From positions 57,474,001-57,538,000 of the forward strand of contig NC_043008.1 of NCBI RefSeq assembly GCF_006345805.1: a stretch of 64,000 bases of DNA, given 5' to 3'. Position numbers and translations under genes: made by a program. This stretch comes from Octopus sinensis. Lineage: Eukaryota. This document shows, in pieces, positions 8,281 through 61,984 of the stretch (positions are counted from its first letter, which is position 1; every line of letters starts with the position of its first letter). The notes below the pieces were generated by a model. The model did no database searches, was not told the DNA's origin, and was given only the letters and a program-made list of their open reading frames with translations.

Positions 8281-8619
8281 TGATGACAATCTAAACTGTC
8301 AAACATCTAAAACATTGATGTTGGGTGTGTACCACATAAAATCGTACACTGCCATACAGGATATGAATCTGTATTGTCCTTCAGGTGTTTTCCAGCTACT
8401 TTCTAATTGATATTGCATTCTGTACCTCCTTCTTTTCATTGGCAGGTATAGTTTGTGTAGTTTGGAAGATGATACCGGGCTTCACAAGTCCTGTTACACT
8501 TGTTACGATGCTCTCAACAAAGGACACGACAATAGTTTTGTGCAGTCAGACATGTTTTTATTGTTTTAACGTATAAATATGTGTTTAAATATTAACAACA
8601 ATCAACGTAACTGCCTCCA

Positions 8620-9545
8620 GCAGTGAGAATGCTCTCCAGGTAAGACCTGAAGGCTGTGCACACATTGTGGACAAAGTCCTTCATACTGGCCCACATGCAA
8701 TTGACGGAGTACTTCATTTCATCAATGTTGCTGTGGTGGACCATGCAGTCCTTGCCCTTGACATGTGCCTATACGCTAAAATCAGTTGGATTGGGGTCAG
8801 GCAACTGCAACGGCCAAAATCCTTTGACCAGAAGTTCATGTTTGACGCCATCCATTCTCACACAACCCTAGCCATGTGGGCCAGGGCACTGTGCTGCTGA
8901 AAGACGTAGTTGGTCTTCTTCATGATATTTTTCACCCAGGGCAGGACTTTCATAGCCATGATGTCCCTGTTGTTGGCTATGATGAGCCTGTAACTGGTTG
9001 CGAACCACACTGTCATCATCTTCTTGCTATCTGAAGTCACAACGCAAAGCATCATCAGGTTGTGGGCATGTAGCAGAGCTTAGAGATTTGCTGGCTGAAG
9101 CTGATCAAGGGGTCGTTCTGATTGTTGATGACTGGATTGACCATGAAGGTGTTTTCATCAGAAAACATGAGAATCCACTTGCCATGACACTTCAAGTTGT
9201 TGAGTAGGTGATAACAGTGCTCCCAATGATATTCTTGCATATGGTCTGTGAGCAGAGACCTTTCTATGCACCTCAAGCTCTTGACATTCCTGGACACTGT
9301 TGCCACTGAAATGCTGTTGTCCTTCATGAGTGCAGTCATTTTAAGCTTCTGGTCGCTTTCGAAGGCTTTCTCTCCGCCAAACTGTTGACAATTTCATGTC
9401 TGTTTGATTGAGGTTGATCTTAGAGGTTTTTCTTGTTCTTAAGAAGCCTCACTGTGAATCTGTGGACAGTCATTTGGCTGACATTTAGCTGTTTGGCAAT
9501 GTTGGACTTGTGGCCCATGTGCAGGAGAGCAGAAATCTCGATTTT
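8620..9545 (-). mobile_element. Decayed Tc1/mariner transposase
   Basis: FSDENTF, YVFQQHSALAH and NMNFWSKDF remnants; HTH-like NIAKQLNVSQMTV. Paralog at 25690-26300. Confidence 0.8.
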
Positions 9546-10354
9546 TTTTTTTTTTTTTTTCTTTCCCCCTCTCATTTCCATCATAATGGAAATTATGAGC
9601 AAGATGAAATTACGAACGGAATCAACAACCAAGAGACTTAAATATTACTCAGTGATTGCTGCCAATTCTTGAGAGATAGTTTTGGATAGCTGAGTAGTAT
9701 TTGCAACTTCATTCTAAACTTTTTTTTATACTTTCTGCTTTTTCCCATTGTCATTTCTACCCACTTTGGTTATTCTCAGTTTTCTCTAATCCGCACCTGT
9801 TACCTTGCCTCTCTCTCCCTCTCTTTCTTTTCCCTTTTTGTCCTCTCTTCTCCCCTTCCTCCCCCTTTTCTCTATTTCTTCCATCTTCATCCTTTCTTTC
9901 CCTGTTTTTATCTTCTCCTCTCACCTCTTTTTTCTCTTTGCGCTTTTTGATTTTTTTCTCCCCACACTTTTAAATTTTTCCTCCCCATGTCTTTATTTAC
10001 CTCTTCTCCCCCCCCCTCCTTTTTTCCCCTTCTTTCTCTTCTCATTTTACATTCATGCCCGATTACAAAGCTTTCCTCCTTGATCTCCACAAGCGCCTAA
10101 AACAACACCTCCCCCTCTTCCCTACGCATTTTCAAAAAAACTTGTTTCTCTAGTGACATTTCATTTCTTAGTCACTGCTTTCATCACCGCCTCATCCTTA
10201 AAGGTTTCCACCTCCATTTTCACCTCACTCTCCACTCTGCTACAACCATCCTACCCATACTCCTCCGTACTGCATTCTGCCGCCTTAGGCGTGCCACCAT
10301 TCGCTCTAATCTCTCCAAAATACACCCCTCTTCTACCCATCCATAATTGACCTA

Positions 10355-14022: not shown

Positions 14023-14224
14023 ACCTATCCATTCTTGTTGCTTCTTTCTCGCTTATAATCACCCCACATTACTGTATTGTTAAATCAGTATAGTTTTTTT
14101 TGGTGCATCTAAGTTAGGTACCATATTCAAGTAAATTTTTTAAATTAACTTGAATCTTTATTGCTCTTTGAATATATTCCCATACAGTCTGTATGTTTTT
14201 CTGGTACTTAATTTCTCAACAAGA

Positions 14225-17058
14225 ATGGAAAAAGTAAACATTGAGTTCTCCCCTAAAGACATCCCCTTACATAGTATAGATGAATATAATTGGCTTCTCA
14301 TTCATAGGATTAACGATTTCATTAGAAGAATCAGGTGGAAAACGTACCATTTTGATGTCAAACAGAAGAAGAAACCTCAGGAAATGAATACCGAAAAGAA
14401 TTTTAGAAGAATTTTTAAAAGTAGAAAAAGCCCACCTCAGAACCCATTCCTGGAGAACTTTGAGAAAGACTTGCTGAATCTTATAGATGATATTAGCTTC
14501 AATGAACACCCGTTAAGGTATAACCCTCACCTTAGACACCTTAGGAACTTTATTCAGTCAACCCGGTGCAAACATGGAATCCTAGTACCAGCAGATAAAA
14601 CGGGTAATATGTATAGAGTTGATTACGATATTTATAGCAAATTAATTAGGAAAGAACTAAACTCCAAATATAAAATTACAACTAAGAACAATTTGAAAAA
14701 AGTAAACATGGAAATGAAAGAGATCATGGAGAAACTAAATTTAACAGATAGAACGGAGCCACTTATACCCTGCGAGCCCAGGATCAACCTTAAAGACCAC
14801 AAAAAGGACTTCTTGAATAACCCGTCGGTAAGGCTGATCTGTCCAACTAAGTCGGACATTGGCCGACTTAGTAAATCCATCCTGGATACTGTTCTACCCC
14901 AAATAACCCCTCTTCTCCCCTTAAACCTATGGCTAAGTACCGACGAAGTTCTAAAATGGTTTAACTCTCTAACTAATACTAGTAGTCTGTCCTTTATTCA
15001 GTTCGATATTAATAGTTATTACTCTAGCATTTCCCCTATCTTACTCAACAAATCACTAATATTTGCCATGAATCGCTCCCTCATAACTAGAGAAGAACAA
15101 TATTGTGCTACTAGCTAGGAAGACATTTATTGAATTTGAAGATAATTATGGACTAGAGCAGATACACCAAATTTTTTTGATATACCAATGGGTTCCAGTG
15201 ATTCGGCTGAGGTAACCAACCTAGTAGGCGCATATCTATTAAAATGCATAAGCAAGGATATCCCAGAAATACAGGGGGGTCTATATAGGGATGATGCTCT
15301 GTTGTTATCCCTAGTAATAATAAATCTGTTATAGAAAGGATTAGAAAGAAAATTAATAAGTTCTTTAAGGACTTCAACCTCAGTATAACGTATGAACCAG
15401 GCACTAAAATAGCTAATTTCCTAGATATTACCCTAGACCTTAACTCCAAGCTACATACACCCATTTAGAAAGGAAGGCGAAGTCACGAATTACGTAAATA
15501 ATTATCAAATCATCCCCCAAATATAATAGAATCTTTAGTAAGAAATATTTCATTAAGAATTTCAAAATTATCATCCAATAAGGATATATTAACTCCCATT
15601 CTGAGCATTATAATGCGGCGTTAACTAAGGCTGGATACAACCAAAAGATTACATTCGTTGATAGGGAGAACTCACGTATTCCTAATAATGAAGTTATCAG
15701 TAATCACGTAAGCAGCAAAAAAGACCAAGCCCGAAATAAAAGTAGAATTAATTAACGGTAAACGCTAATCTAGAGTACAGGCCCAACAATCCAAATAGAA
15801 GCATTGACCAGAAATAGGTAACTCGGATAAGATTGAAGTAGATAAACCTAAGATGCACACAAATAAAAATAAAAATAATGGTAATAAATACAATAACTCC
15901 GGTGAGATGAATAGTAATAATTCTACGAACCCTAAATTTTATAAAAAAGATATATTATGGCTGAATATTCCTTTCAACTGTGCGATACAATCGGATATAC
16001 AGAACAAATTCAAAGTGATTCTGGAAAAAAATTTCCCTATCTCTCATAGATATCATAGAATTATTTCTAGGAAAACAGTTAGGATTTCTTATTCAACCCT
16101 CCCAATATGTCCACTTTAATAGCTAAAATTAATAATAACAACATTAAGCTAGCCAGGAAAGATAGAAATAAAATAATAATATCAGAATGAATACCAATAG
16201 CAATAACAATAATACTACCAACAATAAAAACAGCAATAGGAACTATCAAAACATAGGTGAAATTAGTAACCACAGAATGACTAATAACATTAACATTAAT
16301 AGTAATAATAACAATGCCGATATTAATAGAAGTAATATTGTTAATAATAGAAATAATAGAAATAAGGCTAATGGAGAAAATAAGGAGAATGAAAATATCA
16401 GTGATATCTATAACAATAATATGCAGTTGGATAAAAAGACTAACAATAATAATAACATTACGAATAATATAAGAAATCTTGGTAGGACTTTACACCTAAA
16501 TGATGAATCAGAAGGATCAATAAATAATAACAATACTTTAGATATCAGCACCAACTATAGAAATGATAATCAAAATAATAGGAACCTTAAACATCTACCC
16601 AGGAATAATCCAAGGCCTGAAGTTGTTCCTCCTGTGTGTAAGTGTAGAATAAAATCAAAATGCCCGGCACCTGGTCTATGTAGGGAAAATAATGTAATCT
16701 ATAAATGTACCATATCCACGGAGAATAACAAATATTTTTACATTGGCTGTACAATTAATTTTTTAGCCAGAGTTAGAAATCACATCTCGACTTTTAAATT
16801 ATGTCATAAAGCTGGTACCACCACACTTTCAAACAAAATCTGGGAACTCAAAAATAATAATAAAAATTATACCCTTAATTGGGAAATAGTTAGGAGAGCA
16901 ATTCCGTATAAAAATAGTAGGTTGGTTGTCAACTATGCTCCATGGAGACGTACGAAATTCTAAAGCATAGTAAACATAGAAACTTATTGAATAACCATAT
17001 CGAATTAGGTCAAGTTTGTGTCCACGCTAAATTGAAGACTTTAAAATATTTTAAATGA
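14225..17058 (+). pseudogene. PLE polyprotein: RT, Asn-rich linker, C-terminal GIY-YIG endonuclease; broken by several 1-bp indels
   Basis: FIRRIRWK, PADKT, QFDINSYYSSI, PMGSSDSAE, GLYRDD (15277-15294), SNHPP, CKCR..CP..GLC, NVIYKC...YIG, CQLC. Confidence 0.9.
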
Positions 17059-21720: not shown

Positions 21721-22258
21721 AGTTTAAAAAATTCAAAACTGCAAAAATCTGGTACAAATTTTTTTTATGGTTCAAAGCGTTGCTTACTTTTTACTCTACT
21801 TGATATCTTCTATCTTTGAGGCATATTGGGAGGTGCTTTTATGAGGCAGGGCAGATTCAGACAGATTATTATGTGGAAAGGATGCACTAAATAGAAATAA
21901 TTTTGCATGTATTGTATATTTCCAGTTGACATTTCGTAACAACTTAGAGAGAGAAATGCCTGACAGTCCAATATGTCAAACATTTCAGACATTTACGTTT
22001 AGTATGTTCCACATAAAGTCATGAACTTTAGAAGAAGTGACCGACTGACTTATTAGGCCGATCGATCACTTCCTTTTTTTTGCATTGCTCTTTTTTTTTT
22101 TTTTAATATTTATTAATAAAGATTTGACATAAATGTTAAAAGCATCTTTAAGATATTACAAATTATGTAATAAAGAATAGAAATATCAATTTTTATATTA
22201 TCTCGAGGATGTTACAAAGTATATAATGAAAGATAAAATGAAAAAGTAATATGAAAAT

Positions 22259-23100
22259 TATTCATTCAATGGTTCTGGTGATGGAGCTGCTCTATTTGAA
22301 TTCATCATTTTGCGGTATTTGCACCATTTTGGTGTTTCTCCTCATCCTTGTTCGTTGCCGGAATCTGAGGAGTTGTCGAGCTTGATAGTGTCCCCACTTC
22401 GATCAGGAGACGGAGTCCGAAGTCTGTCTCGTCTTTGTCTACTTTGTTCTCGCAGTATTTCATACTCTTCTACAATATTAACAAGATTATCATCGCTTGA
22501 CGATTCATCGTCATTGAGTTCACGAAAACAAAGTTCATAAAATAGGATATTCCAAATAAAAGGATTTATTTTTTTCTTAACGTATCTTAGGAATGGAGAT
22601 GCACAGTTGAATGTATATTCAGTATATCTTGTTATAAATGCAATTTTTTCTGCTAATGGTGCATTTTGGTCAAATTTGTTATTAGAGGTTATAATTAACG
22701 GAGTTCTATGTACAACTTGGTCTTGTTTGAATTTTACTGATACCTCTGTGTCAGTTCCCTCTGCTAATTTTTTGAATGTTTGCAACGTTTCAAGAGTGAA
22801 GTTGGGTTCTTCAATGAGTCCGATTTCAATGTTTGAGATTTTGGAATGGAAAACTACTGGTGCCTTTTATGGTGCTGACATGTGTGAACATGTCGGCTAT
22901 GCTTCTTGCAATCATAGTCTTACCCGTATTAGGTAAGCCTCTTAGAACTAAGAGGTTTCTTTTAGGTTTTTTTCTTGTTTAAAAGTTCCCAAACATTTTC
23001 AACGAATAAAGGTTCTGAGATATCTTGCGTCGTTAAAATTGATTTGAATTTGTAATATTACTTTAACGATGTGCTTGTCTGGTTCTACCGACTCTCGTTA
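22259..23100 (-). pseudogene. NS1: Endogenous parvovirus element: NS1 SF3 helicase, C-terminal half
   Basis: Minus strand reads KPKRNLLVLR-GLPNTGKT (Walker A, 22916-22939)-MIARSI...SSFPFQNL / NIEIGLIEEP (Walker B)...FKKLAEG...VSVKFK...RTPLIITSN (motif C). About two frameshifts and one probable premature TGA at 22342. Confidence 0.9.
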
Positions 23101-23500
23101 TTTCATAATTACATAAACCCTGTGGCCATTTGCATAAGTTTGTTTTGGCAGAATTACTTATAGTAGCGTTATCTGTACCCCAGGCCATCCATCCCATTGT
23201 TTGTGGACTACCAGATATATATTCTATCTATTCTATATACATATTCAATCTATTTCTGAGTGATATGTTATTGTTACCATAAATGAAATTTTTGCAGGTT
23301 GATTTTGTGAATCTAAAATTGGTATGGCATCTAAAGTAGCTATTGGTGGAGGATTTGAAGGATTTATAGGAAATTGTGTTAAATGTGATCTTCCAGTATT
23401 TTCTTCTTCGTCTGTTTTATCTACTGCTAGATCTTTACTCCATGAACCGTCTTTAGTAGGTGCCCACTGACTTTTTTTAGCACCGAAATAAGTGTTTATT
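23100..23500 (-). pseudogene. Probable parvoviral capsid (VP) C-terminal fragment
   Basis: PPPIATLDAIPILDSQNQPAKISFMVTITYHSEI resembles the terminal jelly-roll strands of denso/hamaparvovirus VPs. Adjacent to NS1, similar composition, no TE motif. Confidence 0.55.
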
Positions 23501-23503
23501 TCG

Positions 23504-24552
23504 CAGATGGAGGTTGTTATCAATACTTCTACCCAGCATGGCACATGTTTGTGCCTTGTTGACTAGTTTCTCGATGACAAGCGCCAACCTCTCAGCTAAC
23601 ACCTTGGCCAAAGTTTTCAAATCTGCGTTGAGCAGAGTGATGGGCCTGAAATTATCTATGATGTCCCCCTTATTTGGGTCTTTTTTAATCAGTGCCACTG
23701 CACCTCGCCTTACAAAAGCAGGGATACTCCCGTTTTGCTGCCAGTTACAGTAGACAGCTGCCAAGATGCCTCCAAACAAGTCTGGCATATGACAATAAAG
23801 TTCGTAGGGCAGACCATCCAAGCCTGGTGACTTGTCTGTCGCGCAGCCTGCCATCGCATCCTGTACATCCGCAGCTGTGATAGGCGTTTCACAAGACTCC
23901 GCCTCTCTTGCTGAGAGTCGTGGCAAGGCATGCAGGTAGGCACTAAAGTCCACTCTGCGTTCCGACCCACCACTTGTCCCAAACAGTTGGGTGAAGTGTT
24001 GTTGAAAAGCCTCACACATCCTTTTAGGCTCGAGCAATTCGCGCCCCTGTTCATCTGTAAGAGACTTGATGGTGGCTCTGTTGCCTCATTGCGTCTCCAC
24101 CACTCGGGCTTCTCGGGCAGCTCCAATTCCTTCGTTCCTCAGAGCACGCATCCTTCATGTTTGGTGTTGAGGTGTTGGTCGAGGGCCAACCTCGCTGCCA
24201 GTACGTTGGACACGATGCCAGTTCGAAGTGCCTCTTCTAAATTCTTAACTAAGTCTCCCTCTATTCTATTTCGGTCTAATGTTAGGGCCTTACTGTACCT
24301 GACTGATTCTACTTTAATTGCTTTTTTTAGAGCATACCACCATCTGTTGTTGATGATGGTACCTGTCCAAGCTCTCTTAACTAATGTGCTGGTCTGATCC
24401 TTGTAAGCCTGTCGTGCTGTAAAAGACGCGTTCAGCTTCCAGTAACCAGGACCCATATGCAAATATTTGGAGAAAACAAAATATTTGATATTAAAACAGG
24501 GCTGAAAATGCCCCTAGGGGCAAAATCCCCCAGGTAAAAAACACACCCAGCT
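23504..24552 (-). mobile_element. Tx1-clade LINE fragment: 5' UTR joined to internal ORF2, truncated in RT
   Basis: GPGYWKLN, KSPGLDGLPYELY, NFRPITLLNADLK, QTCAMLGRSIDNNL. UTR 24500-24550 matches 4648-4696. Confidence 0.9.
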
Positions 24553-24559
24553 TAATTAG

Positions 24560-25017
24560 GATAGTCAACAGAGAAGCTTTGTGGACCGTGTTGAAAACAT
24601 AGGTCGGGTCTGTGAACATGGAGTGTAAATCCATTCATTGTTCAAAGCACTTCTCCTTGACTTTGACACACAGCAAACACTATATCTATGGTGCTGTGGC
24701 CAGGGCAGAAGCCACACTGGTCTTTAGGTGAGTTGTTCTCAGAGACGCCAGTTATAATCCTGCTCAAGAGGATGTGAGCCAGGATTTTTCCAGCAATGGA
24801 AAGCCGGGAAATGTCCCTGTAATTTCTGCAGTCTGGTTTGGCTCCATTGTTCTTGTAGAGCATAACTATGGTGGCATCTCGGGAAGTCTGCTGCTGAACG
24901 CTCTTCCTCCCAAATGGACACAAGGATGTTGTGGAATGCTTTGTAAGCTGTGGTACCAAGTGTTCTGTACAATTCTGCAAGGAGTCCATCTGCTCCCGGA
25001 GCTTTACTACTGTTCAT
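24560..25017 (-). mobile_element. RTE-clade LINE RT fragment
   Basis: KAPGADGL, DATIVMLYKNNG..DCRNYRDIS.LSIAGKILA, QCGFCPGHSTIDIVF. Confidence 0.85.
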
Positions 25018-25689
25018 GTTTTTTATGGTAGTCTTGACCCCCAGCAGCTGGTCAAGAAGTCAGACATGGTCAACAGTAATGGAAATCTTGAGCAAAATGA
25101 AATTACGAATCCAATCAACAACCAAGAGACTTATATATTATTTGGTGATCTCTACCAATTCTTCAGAGATAGTTTTGGATTGCTGAATAGTATTTACAAC
25201 TTCGTTCTTAGATTTTGCTTCTCAAGCACTAGTTTTAGTTTTTCAGAAATAAAGTGCTTTGAGGATCTGTGTTGGATATAAAGCTTTTGTTGTGTTAAGC
25301 AGAAGGCCACTACTTCATTTCTTGAATTATGTGTGATATTGGTCCATTGACTAGTGCCAACCCTGTAAAATGCTCTTTCCAGGGTGTATTTCATAAGGTT
25401 TAAATTACTTCTTTGAAGACCTTCAACAAAGCTTGATGTGAAGGAGTGTCGCCTGCATTCTGATTGTTCATATTGGGTACTCTTGTACTGATGAGGGCCA
25501 CAGCATCAAGTTGATGGCTGAAAGTAATGTAAACATGACAGACATTGGCATAATAATCACACTGAATATACACTCATTTTCAATGCATATGAAGTGAGCA
25601 TATGAAACTGAATGTATGTACAAGGCTTTAGAAAAGCCCTGTTACACTCATTACAATGCACACAAGGATAGTTTTAATTGATGTTGCCA

Positions 25690-26300
25690 CCCTCGGTGCA
25701 AGCGAGGCCTGAAGGCTGTGCACACATTGTGGACAAAGTCCTTCTTCATATGGGTCCACACATGGTTGAAAGAAGACTTCAGCTTGTTGGGATTGCTGTA
25801 GCGAGCTTTGCAGGCCTTACCCTCAACATGTACTCATACACTGTAGTCGAGTGGGTCAGGGTCAGACGACTGTAGTGGCCAAAATCCTTTGACAAGAAGT
25901 TCATGTTTGACCCCCAGCTACTCTCACAGAACCTGCTGAACGATGTAGTCTATCTTCATTATTTTTCTCACCTAGAGGAGGACATTGATAGCCAAGATGT
26001 TCTTGTAGTCAGCTTCGGTGAGCCTTAACCAGTTGCGAACCACACCAGCAGCATCTTCTTGCTATTTGAAGTCGCAATGCGAAGCATCATCAAGGAGGCC
26101 GGGTGCTTAGTTGTGGACATGTATAGACGTCCTGGTTGAAGCTGATCATGTGATCGTTCTGATTGTTGATGACTAGATTGACCACGAAAGTGTTTTCATT
26201 AGAAAAAAATGAGAATTCCATTGCCATGACACTTCAAGTCATTGAGTAGGCAACGGACTTGTGACCCATGCACAGGAGAGTTGAGATCTTGATTTTTTTC
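25690..26300 (-). mobile_element. Decayed Tc1/mariner, paralog of 8620-9545
   Basis: Shared blocks, e.g. cctgaaggctgtgcacacattgtggacaaagtcc and ttgccatgacacttcaagt; FWPLQSSDPDPLDY. Confidence 0.8.
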
Positions 26301-27066
26301 CTTTTAACTTCCATCTCAATACACCTGCATGCAATGGAAAAGTAGAACTTCAAGTACGTTTGATGGCACATTTTCTGTCACACTCTTTAACCTCTTCAAA
26401 GATCAAAATTTACAAAGCCTGGTATCTTTGTGAAGGCCATTATTTTGAGAGGCCCTCTTCTCCAAACAACCTAATGTAGCAGTTTATGTGGTTTGTTTTT
26501 GGAGACTTGAGTTCTGCTCCCTAAATGACAGTATCCCTTTGGTAAAATTCTTTAAATCTCCATTATAGGAGTATCGTATCCAAAATTAGCAACAGGTCAA
26601 GAGGTCAGACATGATCAGCAATAATGGAAATTATGAGCAAGATGAAATTACGAACCAAATCAACAACCAAGAGACTTAAATATTACTCAGTGATTTCTGC
26701 CAATTCTTGAGAGATAGTTTTGGATAGCTGAGTAGTATTTGCAACTTCATTCTTACATTTTGTTTCTCAAGAAATAGTTTGTTTTTCTGAACTAAAGTAT
26801 TTTGAGGATCTGTTGGATATGGGGTGATTTTTTTATTTTTTTTATTATTTTTAAGAAGCAAAGGGTCACTGCTTCAGCTCTTAAGTTATGTGTGGTATTG
26901 ATATATTGACTAGTGTCAAACCTGTAACATGTTGTTTCTATGGTGTATTTAATAAGGCTTCTATTACTTATTTGGAGTCCTTCCACTCAGTTTGATGTGA
27001 AGGAGTATCGCCATCAATGTTCTGCATGTTGACCTCGTCACCCAGTAATATTAAAAGGGCTACAGT

Positions 27067-27285
27067 AGTGGTTCCCAAACTTTTAGAAGTTGTGGCACAC
27101 TTGAAGCCTTACAAAAAATTACGGGCACATTACACAGAATGCTAAGACATATAATGCAAAATGTAACGAAGTACAAAAATAACTGTAAAAAGGGTATATA
27201 CCTTTTATCCATTATCTATTTTGCACTGATGAGATGTATGAGCTTGGTGTGTCTTGCCAATTTCTTCAATGTTGGGACATATGTA
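27067..27285 (-). mobile_element. hAT transposon 3' end with TIR
   Basis: tagtggttcccaaac TIR-like end; PNIEEIGKTHQAHTSH C-terminus on minus. Confidence 0.65.
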
Positions 27286-27288
27286 TGA

Positions 27289-28305
27289 CTAGCAGCATAG
27301 CCCGGCGTTGCCCGGGTATGTAAGAAACTTTGTCGATAAGCAATGCCCTTTACCTTTTTACTCTTTTTTGTACTCATTGTACCGTTATTTTGTAAAATGA
27401 AGCCTAAAAGGCATTCAGGGCATTGTTCCTTTGCATGCATGAAGAAAATTTATGACAGTCAAAGTGCATTTTCTGGTTTTGTTTAGCACACCCAACGCAG
27501 TTCGGACCACAGCTAAGCCCTACCTAATCCTAACTTAAGTCTAGCGAAAGGGGGCTCGGGAGCCTCTAGTAGGCAACGACTAATCCCGATCTAGTCCTTT
27601 CCCTCTAGGGAATGAAGGCGCATGTGTAGGTTGCAACGTCTTCTCTTCACTCCAATACTTCTGTGTATACGACATTCCTAGCTTTGGGTGAAAACATGAA
27701 AACATCATTGCGCCTCCCAACGCGTGAACAGCCCTCATAGAGTTGACCGTGGGCGAAGCACTGTTTGCCCAAATGTAACCCAGCGACTTGTAGTGTTTCG
27801 CCTTGGGATTTATTGATGGACTTTGCGAAGCAGAGTTTAACAGGAGACTGAGAATGTCTGAAGTCGATTGGTAGGTCAGCGCCCAACGGTTGAAGGTGCA
27901 TGCGTGGAATGAAGACGTCCTCTCCCTTCCCACAACCGGTAAGTATTGTGGCTGTTATTAAATGTGGTACCAAATGTTTCACAACCAGACGTGTGCCATT
28001 ACACTGTTTAGGTGGAACCAAATTCCTGATGAGCATAATGGGCGGCATCCTATTTTCACCGAGCGATAAAAGGTCCCTGGAGAATGCAGCGGATCCGCTG
28101 TCACCAATCAATTGCGTGCATGTTAGTTTGGAGGTGCAAGGGCTGCACATGTGCCCAAAGAGCTGATGACTTAAGGCGCACGGCATCGGCACGGGTTCCT
28201 TTAGGAATAACAGGTCTGCCTGAAGTCTCCTGAAAGAAGTAAAGTCAATCCTCCCATGGGGGCCGTAGAGTCTCTGATGTCTTGCAGGGACCTGTCCAGT
28301 GCCTC
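27289..28305 (-). mobile_element. Helitron 3' end with internally deleted Pif1-type helicase
   Basis: 3' hairpin cccgggcaacgccggg followed by CTAG|T at 27289-27292. Protein IMLIRNL..CNGTRL, INKSQGETL, HGQLY..CSRV. Confidence 0.92.
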
Positions 28306-28379
28306 ACATCTTAATTTAGCTAACTAATAAAATCGAGGAAAGAGTGAGAGAAAGTTGTGGTGAAAGAGTCAGCAGAAGT

Positions 28380-28456
28380 TCGCCCGGTCTGAGATTCGAA
28401 CTCACGATCCCTCGACCGCGAGTCCGCTGCTTTAACCACTAGGCCATGTGCCTCCA
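28380..28456 (-). mobile_element. tRNA-like SINE head (further copies at 29962-30038 and 33743-33819)
   Basis: A box TGGCCTAGTGG and B box GAGTTCGAATC on the minus strand. Confidence 0.75.
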
Positions 28457-28457
28457 C

Positions 28458-28790
28458 TGTTGGTGAGAGTGGAAAATCCTAATTTGCATAAAGGTGATGT
28501 TGAAAATTACTGTAAAATGGTGAAAGCTTTTTTGGATATTGACAGGTATTCTTCTCTGATTCCCTATATTTAATCTTCAATCCACCATCGGTGGATATAG
28601 CAGCTAGTTCTTCTTTGGTTAATGTTAAACTAGCATCGTATGAAATTTTTATGAATGGATTTTGAATCCAGTATATTGTTTAGTGTTATATCGGCAGATT
28701 ACGATAATTTATCTTCCAAATTTGTCAAACGTTCGAGTATTAAAAGAGAAGATACCATTTATGCAAGTTCTACTTATCAAAGGAAACCTT
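28458..28790 (-). mobile_element. hAT transposase C-terminal (dimerisation domain) fragment, triplicated
   Basis: EYLSISKKAFTIL..FSTSPLCKLGFSTL matches the hAT FSTSYLCExGFS motif. Confidence 0.7.
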
Positions 28791-30717
28791 TGCAAATTTT
28801 CCTCAGAAGCTCTTACAGTAGTTTTTTTTCTTCACACTATTCCACGGATTCTTCACTGATTGTTGGCTTCCTAACTTTTCCTGTTGGTGTTCGGTTGGAG
28901 TCCCCCCCCCCCTGCATCAACTTGCTCCATTCATTTCTCATTAGTTACTTGAATGCTTTGTTGATACCAACATCCACAGGTTGGATTTGGCTTGTCAGGC
29001 CACCAGGAATAACTGCCAATTGGGTTTCTAACTTTTTTTGTCCCATCAGTTATATGTACCCTAAACTGATCTAACACTGGACTGGCATAGATGGCTTCTT
29101 AAAAAGGTTCCCAGGTCTCTTTCTCCAAAGCTTCATACCATCTTGATCCATCCAGCCCTTTGCATGAACATGCACAAGAACTCCTTCTGGCAGCTTCTCT
29201 GTTGGAAGTGTATTCTTTTTGAAAATGAGCATGTGTGGCAACTGGGTACCATCAGCACAGCATGCCAGGACAGCTGTGCGAGTCTTTCCATGCCCTCCTG
29301 TCTTGATGGCCCCTTTTTGATTCACAGTTTTGTTGGAAGGAGCATCAAAGTTAAGTGGAACTTCGTCCATATTTGCTATGTGGCAAAGTTCAAAGTTGGT
29401 ATTCTTGTGTAAATTAATGATATAAGAACGAAGCTTAATCATTTCTTCATAAGCATCAGGCATCTTCTGAGCAAGCTTGATTCTAGTCCTTAGACTGTTA
29501 TTAAATGTGGTACCAAATGTTTCACAACCAGACGTGTGCCATTACACTGTTTAGGTGGAACCAAATTCCTGATGAGCATAATGGGTGGCATCCTATTTTC
29601 ACCGAGCGATAAAAGGTCCCTGGAGAATGCAGCGGATCCGCTGTCACCAATCAATTGCGCGCATGTTAGTTTGGAGGTGCAAGGGCCACACATGTGCCCA
29701 AAGAGCTGACGACTTAAGGCGCACGGCATCGGCACGGGTTCCTTTAGGAATAACAGGTCTGCCTGAAGTCTCCCGAAAGAAGTAAAGTCAATCCTCCCAA
29801 GGGGGCCGTAGAGTCTCTGATGTCTTGCAGGGACCTGTCCAGTGCCTCAAGGGCGCTTTGTGTGCCATAGTGCACTCGTCCCATACTCTCACATCTTAAT
29901 TTAGCTAACTAATAAAATCGAAGAAAGAGTGAGAGAAAGTTGTGGTGAAAGAGTCAGAAGTTCGCCCGGTCTGAGATTCGAACTCACGATCCCTCGACCG
30001 CGAGTCCGCTGCTTTAACCACTAGGCCATGTGCCTCCACTGTTGGTGAGAGTGGAAAATCCTAATTTGCATAAAGGTGATGTTGAAAATTACTGTAAAAT
30101 GGTGAAAGCTTTTTTGGATATTGACAGGTATTCTTCTCTGATTCCCTATATTTAATCTTCAATCCACCATCGGTGGATATAGCAGCTAGTTCTTCTTTGG
30201 TTAATGTTAAACTAGCATCGTATGAAATTTTTATGAATGGACTTTGAATCCAGTATATTGTTTAGTGTTATATCGGCAGATTACGATAATTTATCTTCCA
30301 AATTTGTCAAACGTTCGAGTATTAAAAGAGAAGATACCATTTATGCAAGTTCTACTTATCAAAGGAAACCTTTGCAAATTTTCCTCAGAAGCTCTTACAG
30401 TAGTTTTTTTTCTTCACACTATTCCACGGATTCTTCACTGATTGTTGACTTCCTAACTTTTCCTGTTGGTGTTCGGTTGGAGTCCCCCCCCCCCCCCCGC
30501 ATCAACTTGCTCCATTCATTTCTCATTAGTTACTTGAATGCTTTGTTGATACCAACATCCACAGGTTGGATTTGGCTTGTCAGGCCACCAGGAATAACTG
30601 CCAATTGGGTTTCTAACTTTTTTTGTCCCAACAGTTATATGTACCCTAAACTGATCTAACACTGGACTGGCATAGATGGCTTCTTAAAAAGGTTCCCCAG
30701 GTCTCTTTCTCCAAAGC

Positions 30718-32908
30718 CAAAAGGAGTAGTAATTGCTGTTTTAGGAATATCGTCTGAGTTGACCGGTATTTGACGGTAGGCACGTATCAGGTCAACTTTA
30801 GAAAAAATAGTACAGCCATGTAAATTTGCCGAAAAATCGTTTAAAATCCTTATGGGATATTTGTCTGGAATCGTCACCGAATTTAGACGCCGATAATCTC
30901 CCACCGGGCGAAAATCTGTATGCCCTGTTCTTACTAAATGAAGGAGGTCCAGTTGTTGTTATAAAGTGTCGTGTCGAATGCAATGGCTTAGCCACCCTAA
31001 AGGTAACATCATATAGCTCTGGAAAAGAAGCTAAAAGAGAGTGAAAAACATCTCCAGATGTACCGACAAAAAATGTCGGGCTAAGAGCTAAATTGGTAGA
31101 TTCTCCGGTCGGCGTGGAGAGTGTAGTCGAACTATCGACCAACCTCCGACGTCTGACATCTACCAACAAATCAAATTTATCCAGAAAATCCGCACCTAAA
31201 ATAGGATGTGGAATGTCGGCAATGACAAAAACCCATTGAAAGTCTCGTCGAAGACCAATATCAAGGCGCAACGAGATCTGACCGAATGTGGCTATTGGTG
31301 ACGAGTCAATAGCGTGCAAGATGATGTTAGATCGCTTTGGCCTGTCGGTTGTGCAACGCAGAGGCCAAATACTGCAACAAGAACCAGTGTCCACCATGAA
31401 GTTTTTCTTCGACACTAGATCTTTAACAAAGAATGCACGATAACCAGAAAATGTTGTGGAGGAAGTTGACGTGCTCAAATTCTCCGAATCTAGTTTAAAG
31501 ACTTATAAGTGCATGGCTGTGTGCATCTATGTGCATTCTCTCCATACTTGGAGTGGTACCAACACAGTCCAGACTTAGACTGTTTTGATCTCGAGGATGA
31601 ACGACTGCGACTTCGCGATTTTGAAGATCGCGACACATCGCGTCCATCCTTTTAGTGAGGGTTTCTATTAGTTTAGAAAGCCCCTCAATTGAGGCCGAAG
31701 AAGTTTGTGAACAGGCACAAACAGACCGTGACGATGGTTGAACGGCAAATTCAACCATCTTATCAGCCATCGTTGCTATTTGGTCCACTGTATTTGTCTC
31801 TACTGCTGCTCGGTAGTAATACTTTGTGCACGAAATTGTGCCTCTAACTGTGAAAACCACAGTGTGACATCACCTATAAAAGTAGGTAACGAACCCATAA
31901 ACATTTTGTAGCCTTTTATTCACTAGATGACTCTGTCAAATGGAAAAAAAGAAAATTGACAACGAACCAACGCTGAACAGACGCAACAAGGAAAAACAAA
32001 GGGAAAAAAGAAAGGAAGAAAGAAAGAAAGACCAACAATTGAACCAATAAATTTTGAATGTGCAATTTACAAAAAAAAATGGGTTTTTTGGTTTTTTTTT
32101 TGTTTGTACTGTGTGCACAGAGAATAGAAAAAAAATTCTTTTCTCTTTTTTGTTTTTTTACCAACCTTCGTCGCGTTTTAATCGAGAAAAAAATTTCTTC
32201 TCTTTTTTTTTTTTTTTTCTTCCGTGCGTGAGTGCAGATGAAGAAACAAACTGTTGAAAGGGACTGGAAAACAGGTTGGTCGTGTTTCAGACTTGGCAGA
32301 AAAACTGGATTTTTTTCTTTTTGTTGAGTGTTCTCTGGAACTTCGGGGTCACCACTGTAAGGAATATGTGAATATCTCCTCTTGCACTTTGGGGGTGCAA
32401 GTTGGTGCAATCACTTTCCTTGCTTTTATATCCAGACTCTACCAGTCAAAGAAACACAAAACGCAGACGTAAAAAATAGATATACTTTATTGTTTTATAC
32501 CGGTGAGAAATCAGTGGTACATCTGATGTCCTTGGTTCTGGGCGCGCAAGGCTGAAAGTTAATCGATTGTAATATTTACAATGTTCAGCCGCTAAAAACA
32601 GAACGGGTCAAAAATGGCGTCCGGAGGAAGAAGATGATTTGACTGCAACAATTCAGGTTAAAAGTCTTCGGCCAAAAGACTGCTGCTATCAACCGGAGAG
32701 AGAGCGAATTAAACGTCTGCTTCTATGAAATGCCTGCCGCTGTCTGTCGGACGCTAATGGTCAACGCTTTACGCTCCCTTGCCTCTTTGTTAAGGCTCAC
32801 GCTCCCTTGCCTCTATAAGCTAAGGCCACGTCAGCAAAATTCCCTCTTTCGGACTTCGTGTATTCGCGAGAGGGCGTTGCGCGCGCGCTGTTGTATAGGA
32901 TCACTACA
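30718..32908 (-). mobile_element. Ty3/Gypsy LTR retrotransposon, 5' part: LTR, PBS, deleted gag, protease, start of RT
   Basis: LTR TGTA...TACA 32908-32356; PBS TGGTGACCCCGA (32354-32343, tRNA-Trp type); FMVDTGS protease; DYRRLN, FSKVDLIRAY, KTAITTPFG. Confidence 0.92.
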
Positions 32909-34274
32909 GCTTCATACCATCTCGATCCATCCAGCCCTTTGCATGAACATGCACAAGAACTCCTTCTGGCAGCTTCTCCGTTGGAAGTGTCTTCTTTTTG
33001 AAAATGAGCATGAGTGACAACTGGGTACCATCAGCACAGCATGCCAGGACAGCTGTGTGAGTCTTTCCATGCCCTCCTGTCTTGATGGCCCCTTTTTGAT
33101 TCAGTTTTGTTGGAAGGAGCATCAAAGTTAAGTGGAACTTCATCCATATTTGCTATGTGGCAAAGTTCAAAGTTGGTATTCTTGTGTAAATTAATGATAT
33201 AAGAACGAAGCTTAATCATTTCTTCATAAGCATCAGGCATCTTCTGAGCAAGCTTGATTCTAGTCCTTAGACTGTTATTAAATGTGGTACCAAATGTTTC
33301 ACAACCAGACGTGTGCCATTACACTGTTTAGGTGGAACCAAATTCCTGATGAGCATAATGGGTGGCATCCTATTTTCACCGAGCGATAAAAGGTCCCTGG
33401 AGAATGCAGCGGATCCGCTGTCACCAATCAATTGCGCGCATGTTAGTTTGGAGGTGCAAGGGCCACACATGTGCCCAAACAGCTGACGACTTAATGCGCA
33501 CGGCATCGGCATGGGTTCCTTTAGGAATAACAGGTCTGCCTGAAGTTTCCTGAAAGAAGTAAAGTCAATCCTCCCAAGGGGGCCGTAGAGTCTCTGATGT
33601 CTTGCAGGGACCTGTCCAGTGCCTCAAGGGCGCCTTTGTGTGCCATAGTGCACTCGTCCCATACTCTCACATCTTAATTTAGCTAACTAATAAAATCGAA
33701 GAAAGAGTGAGAGAAAGTTGTGGTGAAAGAGTCAGCAGAAGTTCGCCCGGTCTGAGATTCGAACTCACGATCCCTCAACCGCGAGTCCGCTGCTTTAACC
33801 ACTAGGCCATGTGCCTCCACTGTTGGTGAGAGTGGAAAATCCTAATTTGCATAAAGGTGATGTTGAAAATTACTGTAAAATGGTGAAAGCTTTTTTGGAT
33901 ATTGACAGGTATTCTTCTCTGATTCCCTATATTTAATCTGCAATCCACCATCGGTGGATATAGCAGCTAGTTCTTCTTTGGTTAATGTTAAACTAGCATC
34001 GTATGAAATATTTATGAATGGATTTTGAATCCAGTATATTGTTTAGTGTTATATCGGCAGATTACGATAATTTATCTTCCAAATTTGTCAAACGTTCAAG
34101 TATTACAGAGAAGATACCATTTATGCAAGTTCTACTTATCAAAGGAAACCTTTGCAAATTTTCCTCAGAAGCTCTTACAGTAGTTTTTTTCTTCACACTA
34201 TTCCACGGATTCTTCACTGATTGTTGGCTTCCTAACTTTTCCTGTTGGTGTTCGGTTGGAGTCCCCCCCCCCCT

Positions 34275-35270
34275 GCATCAACTTGCTCCATTCATTTCTC
34301 ATTAGTTACTTGAATGCTTTGTTGATACCAATATCCACAGGTTGGATTTGGCTTGTCAGGCCACCAGGAATAACTGCCAATTGGGTTTCTAACTTTTTTT
34401 GTCCCATCAGTTATATGTACCCTAAACTGATCTAACACTGGACTGGCATAGATGGCTTCTTAAAAAGGTTCCCAGGTCTCTTTCTCCAAAGCTTCATACC
34501 ATCTTGATCCATCCAGCCCTTTGCATGAACATGCACAAGAACTCCTTCTGGCAGCTTCTCCGTTGGAAGTGTCTTCTTTTTGAAAATGAGCATGTGTGGC
34601 AACTGGGTACCATCAGCACAGCATGCCAGGACAGCTGTGCGAGTCTTTTCATGCCCTCTTGTCTTGATGGCCCCTTTTTGATTCACAGTTCTGTTGGAAG
34701 GAGCATCAAAGTTAAGTGGAACTTCGTCCATATTTGCTGTGTGGCAAAGTTCAAAGTTGGTATTCTTGTGTAAATTAATGATATAAGAACGAAGCTTAAT
34801 CATTTCTTCATAAGCATCAGGCATCTTCTGAGCAAGCTTGATTCTAGTCCTTAGACTAAAACCATTTCTCTTCATAATACAGAAGCAGCAGATGGGCATG
34901 TCTTCAAAAGCAGTTGTCTCGTCTGTCTCTTGTCCTTCCTCATCTCCTGAGCAATCCTTCTTCCTTGATTGATGAGGATCTTTGTCAAAACAAATGCACC
35001 AGTTTGCTTTTGGCTTTCAACCCAGTGCTTGAGTTTTTCTTCCAGATTTTGCCACCTTGCCTTTTTGCCTTGTGCTGCTCTCTTCATCCTTGGTATCTGT
35101 ACAAGTTCATCTTTGTGCTTTCTCCACAGTCCAGTCATGGCAGCCGTAGGAGGAGGAGGAGGCCCAAACTGTCTTGCTGCAGCTTTATTTCCATTCTCTT
35201 CTGCAAAGTGAATCATTTTCAGTTTGAAATTTGCTGGATATGTTATGCGCTTTTTATTCTTGGACATTTT
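34275..35270 (-). mobile_element. pogo-family (POGK/Passer-like) transposase, frameshifted; DDE part also present in the duplicated units
   Basis: Brinker-like YPANFKLKMIHFAEENGNKAAARQF; CENP-B HTH WQNLEEKLKHWV; ANMDEVPLNFD; KGWMD. Confidence 0.88.
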
Positions 35271-35399
35271 TGCGCTAAGAGAAAACAAAAACCTATAAAA
35301 AGAGTAATGCACAATCATTTTAGATAACAGTAGACAATACTTAAGATTGTGTCTCGATTGAATTTCCATATTTGGTTATGCTACATTCGCGCCTGTTTC

Positions 35400-40614: not shown

Positions 40615-43400
40615 CCAGAATTTAATTTCTTCCTTATATCCAGCCTTCCTTAATGCTTCGTTTTAGTAGCCAGCATGTTTTAGGAAGCTCTCATAATTCG
40701 AAAAGACCATTGATATTCCATTCCCAACGTTTTTTATTAACATTTTCTTTATCGAGGAGTGGTGGTTACTGTATGCATTTATGTATTTTAAGAAGCTCTC
40801 ATAATTCGAAGAGAGCATTGAAATTCCATTGCCAGTGTTATTTATTAACGTTCTCTTTATTGAGGGGTGGTGGTTACTGTATGCATTTATGTATTTTAAG
40901 AAGCTCTCATAATTCGAAGAGAGCATTGAATTCCATTGCCAGTGTTATTTATAACGTTCTCTTTATCGAGGGGTGGTGGTTACTGTATGCATTTATGTAT
41001 TTTAAGAAGCTCTCATAATTCGAAGAGAGCATTGAAATTCCATTGCCAGTGTTATTTATAACGTTCTCTTTATCGAGGGGTGGTGGTTACTGTATGCATT
41101 TATGTATTTTAAGAAGCTCTCATAATTCGAAGAGAGCATTGAAATTCCATTGCCAGTGTTATTTATTAACGTTCTCTTTATTGAGGGGTGGTGGTTACTG
41201 TATGCATTTATGTATTTTAAGAAGCTCTCATAATTCGAAGAGAGCATTGATATTCCATTGCCAGTGTTATTTATAACGTTCTCTTTATCGAGGGGTGGTG
41301 GTTACTGTATGTATTTATGTATTTTAAGAAGCTCTCATAATTCGAAGAGAGCATTGATATTCCATTGCCAGTGTTATTTATAACGTTCTCTTTATCGAGG
41401 GGTGGTGGTTACTGTATGTATTTATGTATTTTAAGAAGCTCTCATAATTCGAAGAGAGCATTGATATTCCATTGCCAGTGTTATTTATAACGTTCTCTTT
41501 ATCGAGGGGTGGTGGTTACTGTATGTATTTATGTATTTTAAGAAGCTCTCATAATTCTAAGAGAGCATTGATATTCCATTGCCAGTGTTATTTATAACGT
41601 TCTCTTTATCGAGGGGTGGTGGTTACTGTATGCATTTATGTATTTGAAGAAGCTCTCATAATTCGAAGAGAGCATTGATATTCCATTGACAGTGTTATTT
41701 ATAACGTTCTCTTTATCGAGGGGTGGTGGTTACTGTATGTATTTATGTATTTTAAGAAGCTCTCATAATTCGAAGAGGGCATTGATATTCCATTGCCAGT
41801 GTTATTTATAACGTTCTCTTTATCGAGGGGTGGTGGTTACTGTATGCATTTATGTATTTTAAGAAGCTCTCATAATTCGAAGAGAGCATTGATATTCCAT
41901 TGCCAGTGTTATTTATAACGTTCTCTTTATCGAGGGGTGGTGGTTACTGTATGCATTTATGTATTTTAAGAAGCTCTCATAATTCGAAGAGAGCATTGAT
42001 GTTCCATTGCCAGTGTTATTTATTAACGTTCTCTTTATCGAGGGGTGGTGGTTACTGTATGTATTTATGTATTTTAAGAAGCTCTCATAATTCGAAGAGA
42101 GCATTGAAATTCCATTGCCAGTGTTATTTATTAACGTTCTCTTTATCGAGGGGTGGTGGTTACTGTATGTATTTATGTATTTTAAGAAGCTCTCATAATT
42201 CGAAGAGAGCATTGAAATTCCATTGCCAGTGTTATTTATTAACGTTCTCTTTATCGAGGGGTGGTGGTTACTGTATGTATTTATGTATTTTAAGAAGCTC
42301 TCATAATTTGAAGAGAGCATTGAAATTCCATTGCCAGTGTTATTTATTAACGTTCTCTTTATCGAGGAGTGGTGGTTACCGTATGCATTTATGTATTTTA
42401 AGAAGCTCTCATAATTCGAAGAGAGCATTGATATTCCATTGCCAGTGTTATTTATTAACGTTCTCTTTATCGAGGGGTGGTGGTTACTGTATGTATTTAT
42501 GTATTTTAAGAAGCTCTCATAATTCGAAGAGAGCATTGAAATTCCATTGCCAGTGTTACTTATTAACGTTTTCTTTATCGAGGGGTGGTGGTTACTGTAT
42601 GCATTTATGTATTTTAAGAAGCTCTCATAATTCGAAGAGAGCATTGAAATTCCATTGCCAGTGTTATTTATTAACGTTCTCTTTATTGAGGGGTGGTGGT
42701 TACTGTATGCATTTATGTATTTTAAGAAGCTCTCATAATTCGAAGAGAGCATTGAAATTCCATTGCCAGTGTTATTTATTAACGTTTTCTTTATCGAGGA
42801 GTGGTGGTTACTGTATGTATTTATGTATTTTAAGAAGCTCTCATAATTCGAAGAGAGCATTGAAATTCCATTGCCAGTGTTATTTATTAACGTTCTCTTT
42901 ATCGAGGGGTGGTGGTTACTGTATGCATTTATGTATTTTAAGAAGCTCTCATAATTCGAAGAGAGCATTGAAATTCCATTGCCAGTGTTATTTATTAACG
43001 TTTTCTTTATCGAGGAGTGGTGGTTACTGTATGCATTTATGTATTTTAAGAAGCTCTCATAATTCGAAGAGAGCATTGAAATTCCATTGCCAGTGTTATT
43101 TATTAACGTTCTCTTTATCGAGGGGTGGTGGTTACTGTATGCATTTATGTATTTTAAGAAGCTCTCATAATTCGAAGAGAGCATTGAAATTCCATTGCCA
43201 GTGTTATTTATTAACGTTTTCTTTATCGAGGAGTGGTGGTTACTGTATGCATTTATGTGTTTTAAGTTTGCATTAAATTTATGGAAAGGTTGGTTGTATC
43301 AACCCTGTTGCAATATTCAAATTTGCATCTAGAAAATTTACATTATAATGTTCATTATAGATTGTAGTTTCTAACCCGTAATTTTTTAAATATATATTTA
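40615..43400 (-). mobile_element. Naiad-type PLE RT/thumb fragment hosting the 108-bp satellite
   Basis: Flanks read VNFLDANLNI..PFHK and EALRKAGY, collinear with 15410-15640. Confidence 0.75.
40680..43265. repeat. 107/108-bp satellite, ~24 copies
   Basis: Unit aagaagctctcataattcgaagagagcattgaaattccattgccagtg... The long ORFs 41900-43276 and 41913-43184 are 36-aa repeats. Confidence 0.97.
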
Positions 43401-57290: not shown

Positions 57291-58162
57291 CTCAACCGAT
57301 GCCAAGGATATATATATTGTTACGAAACCACCTGCCGTTGCTTGAACTTCGGAACCCGGGACCCTACCAAGTTGAGTGACGACGATTGACCGGCCCAGTC
57401 GAACGGGGAATTCGCCACGGAAAGAGAGGATTCGGTGGGGGAATGGCAGCGAACACAAACCGGAGACCGGAGATAACAGCAACAGCAGGAAGAAAAACAG
57501 AGACACGGCGGAAGGCAATTGGCTACATTTAAGAACAGTTTATAACTATTACAAAATCAAATACAATGTGATACATATCAAAGATACATTAAAAAAAATA
57601 ACATGCAAGAAAACAACAAAATCAAAGCATTTAAACGGTTCACATCGAATCAAAACAGAATGTTCATGATATAGCACAGCCCGGAGACAATAGTTCAAAT
57701 CAGTTCAATGTTCTACATTAGTCTCTCTCTTTCTTTTTCTTTTCAACACAGTTCTTTCTTTTTCCTCTTTCCTTCTTTCTCTTTTTTTTCACATCAATTC
57801 TCTTTTCTTTAACAACTCTTTTTAACACAATTCACATCAAAACATAAACAACACATACCGTTACATTTTCTAGTTACAACTCCTACTACAATAGCCATGC
57901 CTTCTATCCGCTGTAATCCCTCTCTTTCGCTCTACATGTTCCCAATGCTTATCTGTCTGTCTTCCTCACCACGCCTGTCATCCTCTCGCCATCGCCACCT
58001 TCTTGGCTGCTGTCTTTTGCCAACTGACTGCCTCCTCCAGCCCCTTTGCTGTCTCAGGCAGAACTCCTAAACTGCCCTGTTACCAATTCACTGTCTCCGG
58101 CCGAGCTGACCCAACAAACCCACAGCTCCCGCATTTTAAAGGGTAGCAGATTTATTTTTTCC

Positions 58163-61520: not shown

Positions 61521-61984
61521 ACACATACCGTTACATTTTCTAGTTACAACTCCCACTACAATAGCCATGCCTTCTATCCGCTGTAATCCCTCTCTTTCGC
61601 TCTACATGTTCCCAATGCTTATCTGTCTGTCTTCCTCACCACGCCTGTCATCCTCTCGCCATCGCCACCTTCTTGGCTGCTGTCTTTTGCCAACTGACTG
61701 CCTCCTCCAGCCCCTTTGCTGTCTCAGGCAGAACTCCTAAACTGCCCTGTTACCAATTCACTGTCTCCGGCCGAACTGACCCAACAAACCCACAGCTCCC
61801 GCATTTTAAAGGGTAGCAGATTTATTTTTTCCTTAAACTTTCCCTGACCGTAGGGGCCAAAATGTCACTTCCTAATACATAAAACTTTCCAGAAACTAAC
61901 AGAACAAAAGATTTACCCGTCTGCTTGACGCCAACTCACAAAAGTGGGTCATAGCACTCTGTTTCTCAACTGACCCCATATCAC

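Follow-up and report, generated by a model that had tools for sequence, protein, structure and literature searches.

How did the ends of two parvoviral genes come to lie flush against a piece of a LINE in Octopus sinensis, all read from one strand and followed by a run of A? The window, a 64,000 nt stretch of contig NC_043008.1, holds on its minus strand a cut LINE fragment, a Tx1-like 5' UTR, a Tx1-like ORF2 piece, the tail of a capsid (VP) gene, 14 nt, the tail of an NS1 gene, 153 nt and a run of 14 A (A14), in that order (Table 1). An earlier note, made from the sequence alone, had read the co-oriented Tx1, VP, NS1, AT-rich and A-tract parts as a chimera made by a retrotransposon from three RNAs, and alignment bore out every part that it named; the RT-bearing LINE fragment, cut at the same boundary and directly upstream of the Tx1 piece, was absent from its account.

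We find the locus to be an inherited, decayed endogenous parvoviral element that is flush with a LINE fragment and ends in a tail-like A run. This fused locus encodes no fusion protein, a Tx1-VP fusion being ruled out by a stop at 23477 in the Tx1 frame. As a mobile element it is dead: one copy is seen, and it is no new transposon.

Table 1. Parts of the fused LINE/parvovirus locus, in minus-strand order (window positions)
Feature	Position	Strand	Remarks
Upstream LINE fragment, RT region	24551..25060	-	Pfam RVT_1, E 6e-4; read in three frames
Tx1-like 5' UTR piece	24455..24550	-	Lacks at least the first ~26 nt of other copies
Tx1-like ORF2 fragment, endonuclease end to RT start	23504..24454	-	ORF1, most of endonuclease and 3' half missing
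Hairpin, 8-bp stem	23484..23503	-	Begins at first viral base; VP coding sequence
VP tail, 3' end of parvoviral capsid gene to natural stop	23063..23503	-	Frame broken by 20-nt duplication
14 nt past VP stop	23049..23062	-	Common to another VP copy; VP/NS1 joint next
NS1 3' half (SF3 helicase and tail) to natural stop	22258..23048	-	First 280 codons absent
AT-rich stretch, putative viral 3' UTR	22105..22257	-	153 nt, 17% G+C; presumably viral
A14 tract, putative poly(A) tail	22091..22104	-	Spanned by contigs of runs X3 and X5

Inheritance of the locus

Contigs from 4 of the 24 listed runs (X3, X5, X6 and X10), none of them marked as a possible source of the window, were aligned to it; they are read as evidence of presence only, and bins of X6 and X10 that had no cover were left out of any reading of absence. 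A single 1853 nt contig of X3 (organism B) covers 21731-23590, which takes in the flank, the A tract, NS1, VP and the adjoining part of Tx1, and it shows 5 differing letters and 7 gaps. X5 and X6 (both organism C) bridge the VP/NS1 and the Tx1/VP joints; 15 of 1170 letters differ in X5, and 13 of 839 in X6. X10 (organism D) bridges VP/NS1 (7 of 428 letters different) and has no cover at Tx1/VP. The Tx1/VP junction is therefore represented in X3, X5 and X6, and the VP/NS1 junction in all four runs, at 0.3-1.8% divergence. Because several runs hold the junctions in common at this divergence, the locus is inherited and is not an assembly artefact. The structure is older than the split of the organism labels, and the joint between Tx1 and virus is old and shared.

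In X3, as in X5, a single contig with the same depth as the flanks represents the viral part, and thousands of contigs represent the Tx1 part. No second copy of the joined LINE-virus form was seen in the contigs of the four runs, no joint skipping the unit (an empty allele) was found among 15 of the 96 joints listed for them, and scans of viral contigs and of metagenome contigs gave no related locus.

The LINE pieces

The upstream LINE fragment, which we take from its motifs to be RTE-like, ends at the Tx1 boundary, and this joint is found in contigs of X5, X6 and X10. The fragment does not resume past the A tract within the window, so a deletion is required under any model. A six-base overlap at the joint, which would have been microhomology, was set aside: it rests on an assumed RT motif, and a PDB search gave no match.

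Below the boundary, the 5' UTR piece is identical at 61 of 75 nt (24550-24477) to the leader of a Tx1-like element at 4625-4695, and a hairpin motif is common to three copies, at 24521, 4668 and 61379, directly preceding ORF1 in the last two. The ORF2 piece (24454-23504) shows 51-59% identity to residues ~244-567 of another ORF2 in the window (58163-59881), and it matches human LINE-1 ORF2p at E 2e-17, versus 3e-3 for R2. Its companion copy (58163-61325) carries Exo_endo_phos, RVT_1 and zf-CCHC domains, which correspond to an APE endonuclease-RT ORF2 of the L1 group and an ORF1 with CCHC knuckles; the name Tx1, as opposed to L1, is a label that we assume, independent of any RT tree. Other Tx1-like DNA makes up about 14% of the window.

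Contigs of the Tx1 family part from the window at 24454 and at 23504. In X6 there are loose ends of another Tx1 copy at 24477 and 24544, as well as at least 159 unaligned letters at 24454, and the window copy lacks, at 24146-24154, 17 nt that are present in family copies. The missing 17 nt and the extra X6 letters suggest that deletions followed insertion in this allele, and to judge by those letters at 24454 the joint between UTR and ORF2 may be younger than the insertion. The second Tx1-like element (58163-61420) retains an ORF2 piece of 572 codons and an ORF1 of 477 codons, and on either side of it stands a repeat of 300+ nt whose two copies are 99% identical (57851-58150 and 61521-61820). 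This element is cut at most 5 codons from the same RT site with no virus attached, and a break hot spot at this site, cut in both copies, is possible.

The viral genes

The NS1 tail corresponds to residues 281-545 of the 547-residue protein P0001, comprising the last 265 codons, at 67-85% identity (tblastn, E 2e-100), and in the window it matches Pfam Parvo_NS1 above the cut-off; P0001 matches Parvo_NS1 at E 1e-18. As a homology assignment, its identity as NS1 is certain. The reading is interrupted by frameshifts near 22976 and 22834 and by a stop at 22344-22342.

A search with the VP piece gave P0002 at E 4e-30, among 24 matches; the two align at 68% and 50% identity, through the last P0002 residue, and over 85 residues the tail shares 49-51% identity with proteins of Octopus vulgaris that carry a capsid annotation. 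The VP-like C-terminus noted earlier is a capsid piece, but it is longer than had been claimed and continues past the stop at 23245, because a 20 nt imperfect tandem duplication (23247-23228) breaks the frame. The window piece alone has neither a Pfam nor a PDB match, a PDB search with the VP profile gave no real match, and the structure predicted for the family has a mean pLDDT of 35. Judged through its sequence relatives, the identity of VP is certain: P0012 and P0048 carry an N-terminal PLA2-like domain, and P0048, a full-length relative, is similar to clusters of parvoviral VP1 both in its features (0.94) and under a model. In Octopus vulgaris, six accessions in a row (CAI9722210-CAI9722215; P0048-P0052 and P0007) are copies of PLA2-bearing parvoviral capsid proteins, two of them of 536 residues, and the P0001 search returned no named NS1 from the source of this cluster.

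The hairpin that had been placed at the junction of LINE and virus is present and starts at 23503, but it is ordinary VP coding sequence whose residues align to P0003 and P0002, and it is weak (23503-23484, -4.8 kcal/mol) and unremarkable within its 101 nt context (z -0.15). With 13 such stems in the window, the chance that one begins at the junction base is roughly 0.01, a post hoc figure.

Gene order and the joint between VP and NS1

That no spacers separate the parts holds for Tx1, which is flush with VP, but 14 nt sit after the VP stop, and these belong to the VP side. Record 26 of X6 is alike at 152 of 176 nt over 23224-23049 and then diverges; because this other VP copy shares the 14 nt after the stop before diverging, it fixes the breakpoint at 23049/23048. 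The X6 contigs at 22477-22601 and 23049-23224 belong to a related virus or element with a VP that is 86% alike and a piece of NS1. They are not seen in X5, which is deeper and has the same organism label, and they may represent a circulating relative or a variable insertion.

Loss of about 0.85 kb in a single internal deletion accounts for the joint. In the NS1 frame, the three codons that span the VP stop translate as residues 277-279 of P0001, a match whose chance is put at about 0.011 by a post hoc estimate (0 of 395 control windows). The match is a hint of a likeness-guided jump, which would fit reverse transcription, viral replication or repair alike. Splicing was set aside as an unlikely source of the joint, since the residue ahead of 281 is I, V or L in the aligned relatives and an AG acceptor would not be expected there. 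A perfect 10 nt palindrome and a 7-bp inverted repeat also bracket the joint (23049-23075; z -1.6 for a 101 nt stretch).

The canonical NS-then-VP order is absent here, which the earlier note had taken as abnormal, and it is equally absent from two related loci with the arrangement seen in the window. The protein P0029 has a 176-residue extension ahead of the conserved NS1 start that, read in the next frame, fits the VP tail, with scores of 216, 66, 63 and 48 for 4 of 6 VP proteins versus shuffle maxima of 19-27; the remaining two, P0012 and P0008, were not above shuffles, and in the same test neither the other frame nor the control segments gave a comparable score. The VP stop in this locus lies ~25-55 nt ahead of the NS1 start, on the same strand, a spacer too short for a terminal hairpin plus promoter. 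At P0019, on a second contig, VP runs into the same NS1 start (44.9, versus a shuffle maximum of 20.7). Because the end of VP lies directly before the start of NS1 in both loci, the order is probably native, VP-then-NS1 probably being a recurring natural layout in the group, and a switch between NS and VP mRNAs is unnecessary. The earlier note had itself named a VP-NS1 order in the virus as evidence against its reading, and such an order is found in part, through these relatives. They are distant, with NS1 37% identical to that of P0001, and may be a single lineage; by extrapolation from them, the actual source virus probably had VP before NS1. P0029 and P0019 lie on ENA contigs of 89 and 67 kb and show the parvoviral genes in reversed order in a different host or lineage.

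Elsewhere in the group, the alternative-frame test showed no clear VP overlap at the N-termini of P0001, P0026 and P0031, and no NS1 start was clear in the tails of P0022, P0003, P0014 and P0010. In P0023 the joint is the other way round, with an NS1 tail ahead of VP, and P0032 has a rearranged NS1 repeat; to go by these two, tandem or circular viral forms could be an alternative source of neighbouring VP and NS1. The six VP-only Octopus vulgaris accessions would also fit separate segments.

The A-rich end and the flanks

The UTR of ~150 nt, the AATAAA and the A14 described earlier are all present, but the AATAAA (22114-22109) is just 4 nt before the tract. This signal usually lies 10-30 nt from a tail, and its occurrence has a 6% chance at this composition. 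A14 starts 153 nt past the NS1 stop on the coding strand; the chance of a run of 14+ A within 300 nt of the stop on this strand is about 0.02, and among the 7 runs of 10+ A no other has an AATAAA at 40 nt or less. Some of the 14 A may be templated. Past it, the window holds no further viral match and no terminal hairpin. With A14 after the NS1 stop and no terminal hairpin seen, retroposition from viral RNA is plausible.

A target-site duplication, for which the earlier note's model gave reason to search, does not surround the unit: within 23400-30000 the 3' flank finds no exact match longer than 8 nt, and that one, at 25378, is remote from every junction. A likeness of the 5' flank (9 of 10) to a place ~33 nt past the tail was judged by eye not to be a duplication, and a candidate empty-site paralogue at 8284-9727 consists of separate repeats.

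Formation of the locus

LINE-driven copying of a polyadenylated viral RNA is the likeliest route, and quite probably the true one when all RNA readings are taken together; capture by a retrotransposon, as the earlier note proposed, survives to this extent, but its double switch is not needed. Our preferred account, to which we give a probability of roughly 0.45, is that one viral template with VP then NS1 was copied from its A-rich 3' end, shortened internally and joined to a resident Tx1 by deletion. A poly(A)-using LINE enzyme of the L1/Tx1 type would have used for priming the A-rich 3' terminus of a viral RNA that extended through NS1. Copying would then have jumped ~0.85 kb within the template, from NS1 codon 281 to just past the VP stop, aided by the short likeness there. 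The 5' end of the copy would have been joined inside a resident chromosomal Tx1, with loss of the Tx1 3' half and of what remained of the upstream LINE; a deletion at a later time would leave an identical arrangement. Because DNA would be lost at the joining step, no target duplication would be left. The locus would afterwards have been inherited through the split of the four organism labels while losing further pieces, a step that is partly documented. The identity and borders of the parts, the shared junctions, the VP-before-NS1 order of the relatives and the absence of a duplication are observed; the copying steps are our inference.

The joint with Tx1 is best seen against the composition of the window. 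Co-orientation of the parts is true as claimed, but it has little weight, as 18 of 19 Pfam-matching frames share the minus strand (137 frames scanned, with some matches being duplicates of one element), and 16 of 17 do so when the element itself is left out; the scan took in 137 of the 148 frames of 90+ codons, the other 11 being satellite frames. Given the 14% Tx1 content and this minus-strand bias, landing in a co-oriented Tx1 would not be rare. A single deletion reaching into the resident Tx1 accounts for both missing LINE halves. For this joint we regard deletion into a resident copy as at least as likely as a template switch, and the evidence neither supports nor opposes decisively a switch onto Tx1 RNA.

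The strongest competitor, although an unlikely one in our estimate, is that a defective viral genome or replication intermediate was end-joined into a chromosome break, with the A run templated by the virus or supplied by the host and Tx1 met by chance or through deletion. Where rep and cap occur together in a parvoviral element, a DNA origin is the usual reading (PMC3205384); the missing target-site duplication and the 4 nt spacing of the AATAAA would fit such an origin, as would the five runs of 14+ A in the window, all of them on the minus strand. Direct capture of DNA fits less well with a viral match that ends in the manner of an NS1 transcript, with natural stop, AT-rich stretch, AATAAA and A14, with the low chance of an A run so near the stop, and with a window that shows neither a terminal hairpin nor any additional viral match.

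Less credible again is that a VP-NS1 RNA was copied with an internal jump, followed by a template switch onto Tx1 RNA in the same particle and co-insertion with a target deletion. The Tx1 piece, flush with VP and co-oriented, reaches nearly to the 5' end of its element, its joint is common to X3, X5 and X6, the Tx1 and viral parts are about equally decayed, and the hairpin begins at the junction base. Yet the same hairpin adds nothing in its context, co-orientation is discounted by the strand bias and the Tx1 content, no duplication surrounds the whole unit, and the contigs of the four runs show no second copy of the joined form; moreover, both a switch and a deletion are needed, where for the preferred account, with a single template and a resident Tx1, a prior insertion of a common kind and a deletion suffice. 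We hold as equally doubtful a fuller version, in which an undescribed lineage of VP-before-NS1 parvoviruses with a shared poly(A) site supplied a read-through RNA that Tx1 copied before switching onto its own RNA, leaving a germ-line chimera. The possible but least economical reading is the chimera of three RNAs put forward in the earlier note, with two switches among NS mRNA, VP mRNA and Tx1 RNA and a virus that is either NS1-VP or segmented; it can draw on the VP-only gene cluster of Octopus vulgaris, on the NS1-then-VP joint of P0023, on the 2093 nt contig of P0001, which has room for NS1 alone, and on the short likeness at the VP/NS1 joint, which would also guide an intermolecular switch, but it is improbable because it requires two rare events, the first of them unnecessary with VP directly before NS1 in two related loci, and because the other VP copy shares the 14 nt after the stop.

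Relation to known elements

Known chimeric retrogenes of the U6-L1 type, products of template switching by LINEs, have target-site duplications and a small RNA at the 5' end. The octopus locus is like them in that pieces of what may be several templates are joined flush in one orientation with a tail-like 3' A run, and it differs in having neither the duplication nor the 5' small RNA.

Endogenous circoviral elements of carnivores are described as associated with LINE-1 and amplified with it (PMC6372831, PMC11089739). As in those elements, replicase sequence of an ssDNA virus adjoins a non-LTR retrotransposon in germ-line DNA and has passed by descent into several species; the carnivore elements exist in many LINE-amplified copies, whereas here we see one copy, from a parvovirus, with capsid included and a LINE without its 3' half. 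Bornavirus N and filovirus elements, in which a poly(A) tail with a target duplication marks LINE copying of mRNA (PMC3205384, PMC2987831), similarly consist of viral coding sequence with an A tract after the stop. They derive from RNA viruses and have target-site duplications, in contrast to the DNA virus, the lack of any duplication found and the short signal spacing in the present case.

Parvovirus-related sequences are reported from molluscs, and a supplement row of PMC5013282 gives an Octopus bimaculoides element adjoining a transposon. The window locus resembles these in consisting of degraded NS and VP fragments among transposable elements. Known parvoviral elements usually have NS then VP, the layout described in PMC9707805, with a DNA origin assumed, where this locus has VP first and an A-tract end. 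The available text of PMC9707805 makes no mention of retrotransposition or chimeras, and other unusual parvoviral layouts, none VP-first among those described, appear in PMC13426907. Further parvoviral elements are described from shrimp (PMC12287923) and from psyllids, the latter in a piRNA cluster (PMC7527727). The literature searched, mostly outside subscription journals, yielded no paper on an octopus parvovirus, on a parvovirus-LINE chimera or on a VP-before-NS1 lineage.

Fusions of LINEs with ssDNA viruses are already known, and a parvovirus piece flush with a LINE and ending in a tail-like A run is a variant thereof. Parvoviral fossils are generally taken to derive from viral DNA; a dated, shared copy with an mRNA-like ending, if our account is true, would mean that the transcripts which LINEs capture include those of nuclear DNA viruses. 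The place of capture would moreover be a graveyard of transposons with a strand bias, in which antisense small RNAs could arise. The freshest lead is a putative parvovirus lineage with capsid before replicase, which may matter more than the element itself.

The surrounding window

In its strand bias the window resembles a one-strand region of the piRNA-cluster kind, and a present-day role for the locus, if there is any, might be as a template for antisense small RNA. By eye, the plus-strand exceptions are two or three Penelope-like frames (14144-16963 and 54179-56031). Pieces of a Helitron-like Pif1 and a DDE transposase occur three times in 27650-35375, the copies being 97-100% identical and separated by a Gypsy-like RT; they are either recent segmental repeats or an assembly duplication. 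Two tandem arrays are also present: one at 40678-43266, with 24 copies of a 108 nt unit, and one at 48538-48944, with 8 copies of a 52 nt unit, which sits within a LINE RT gene.
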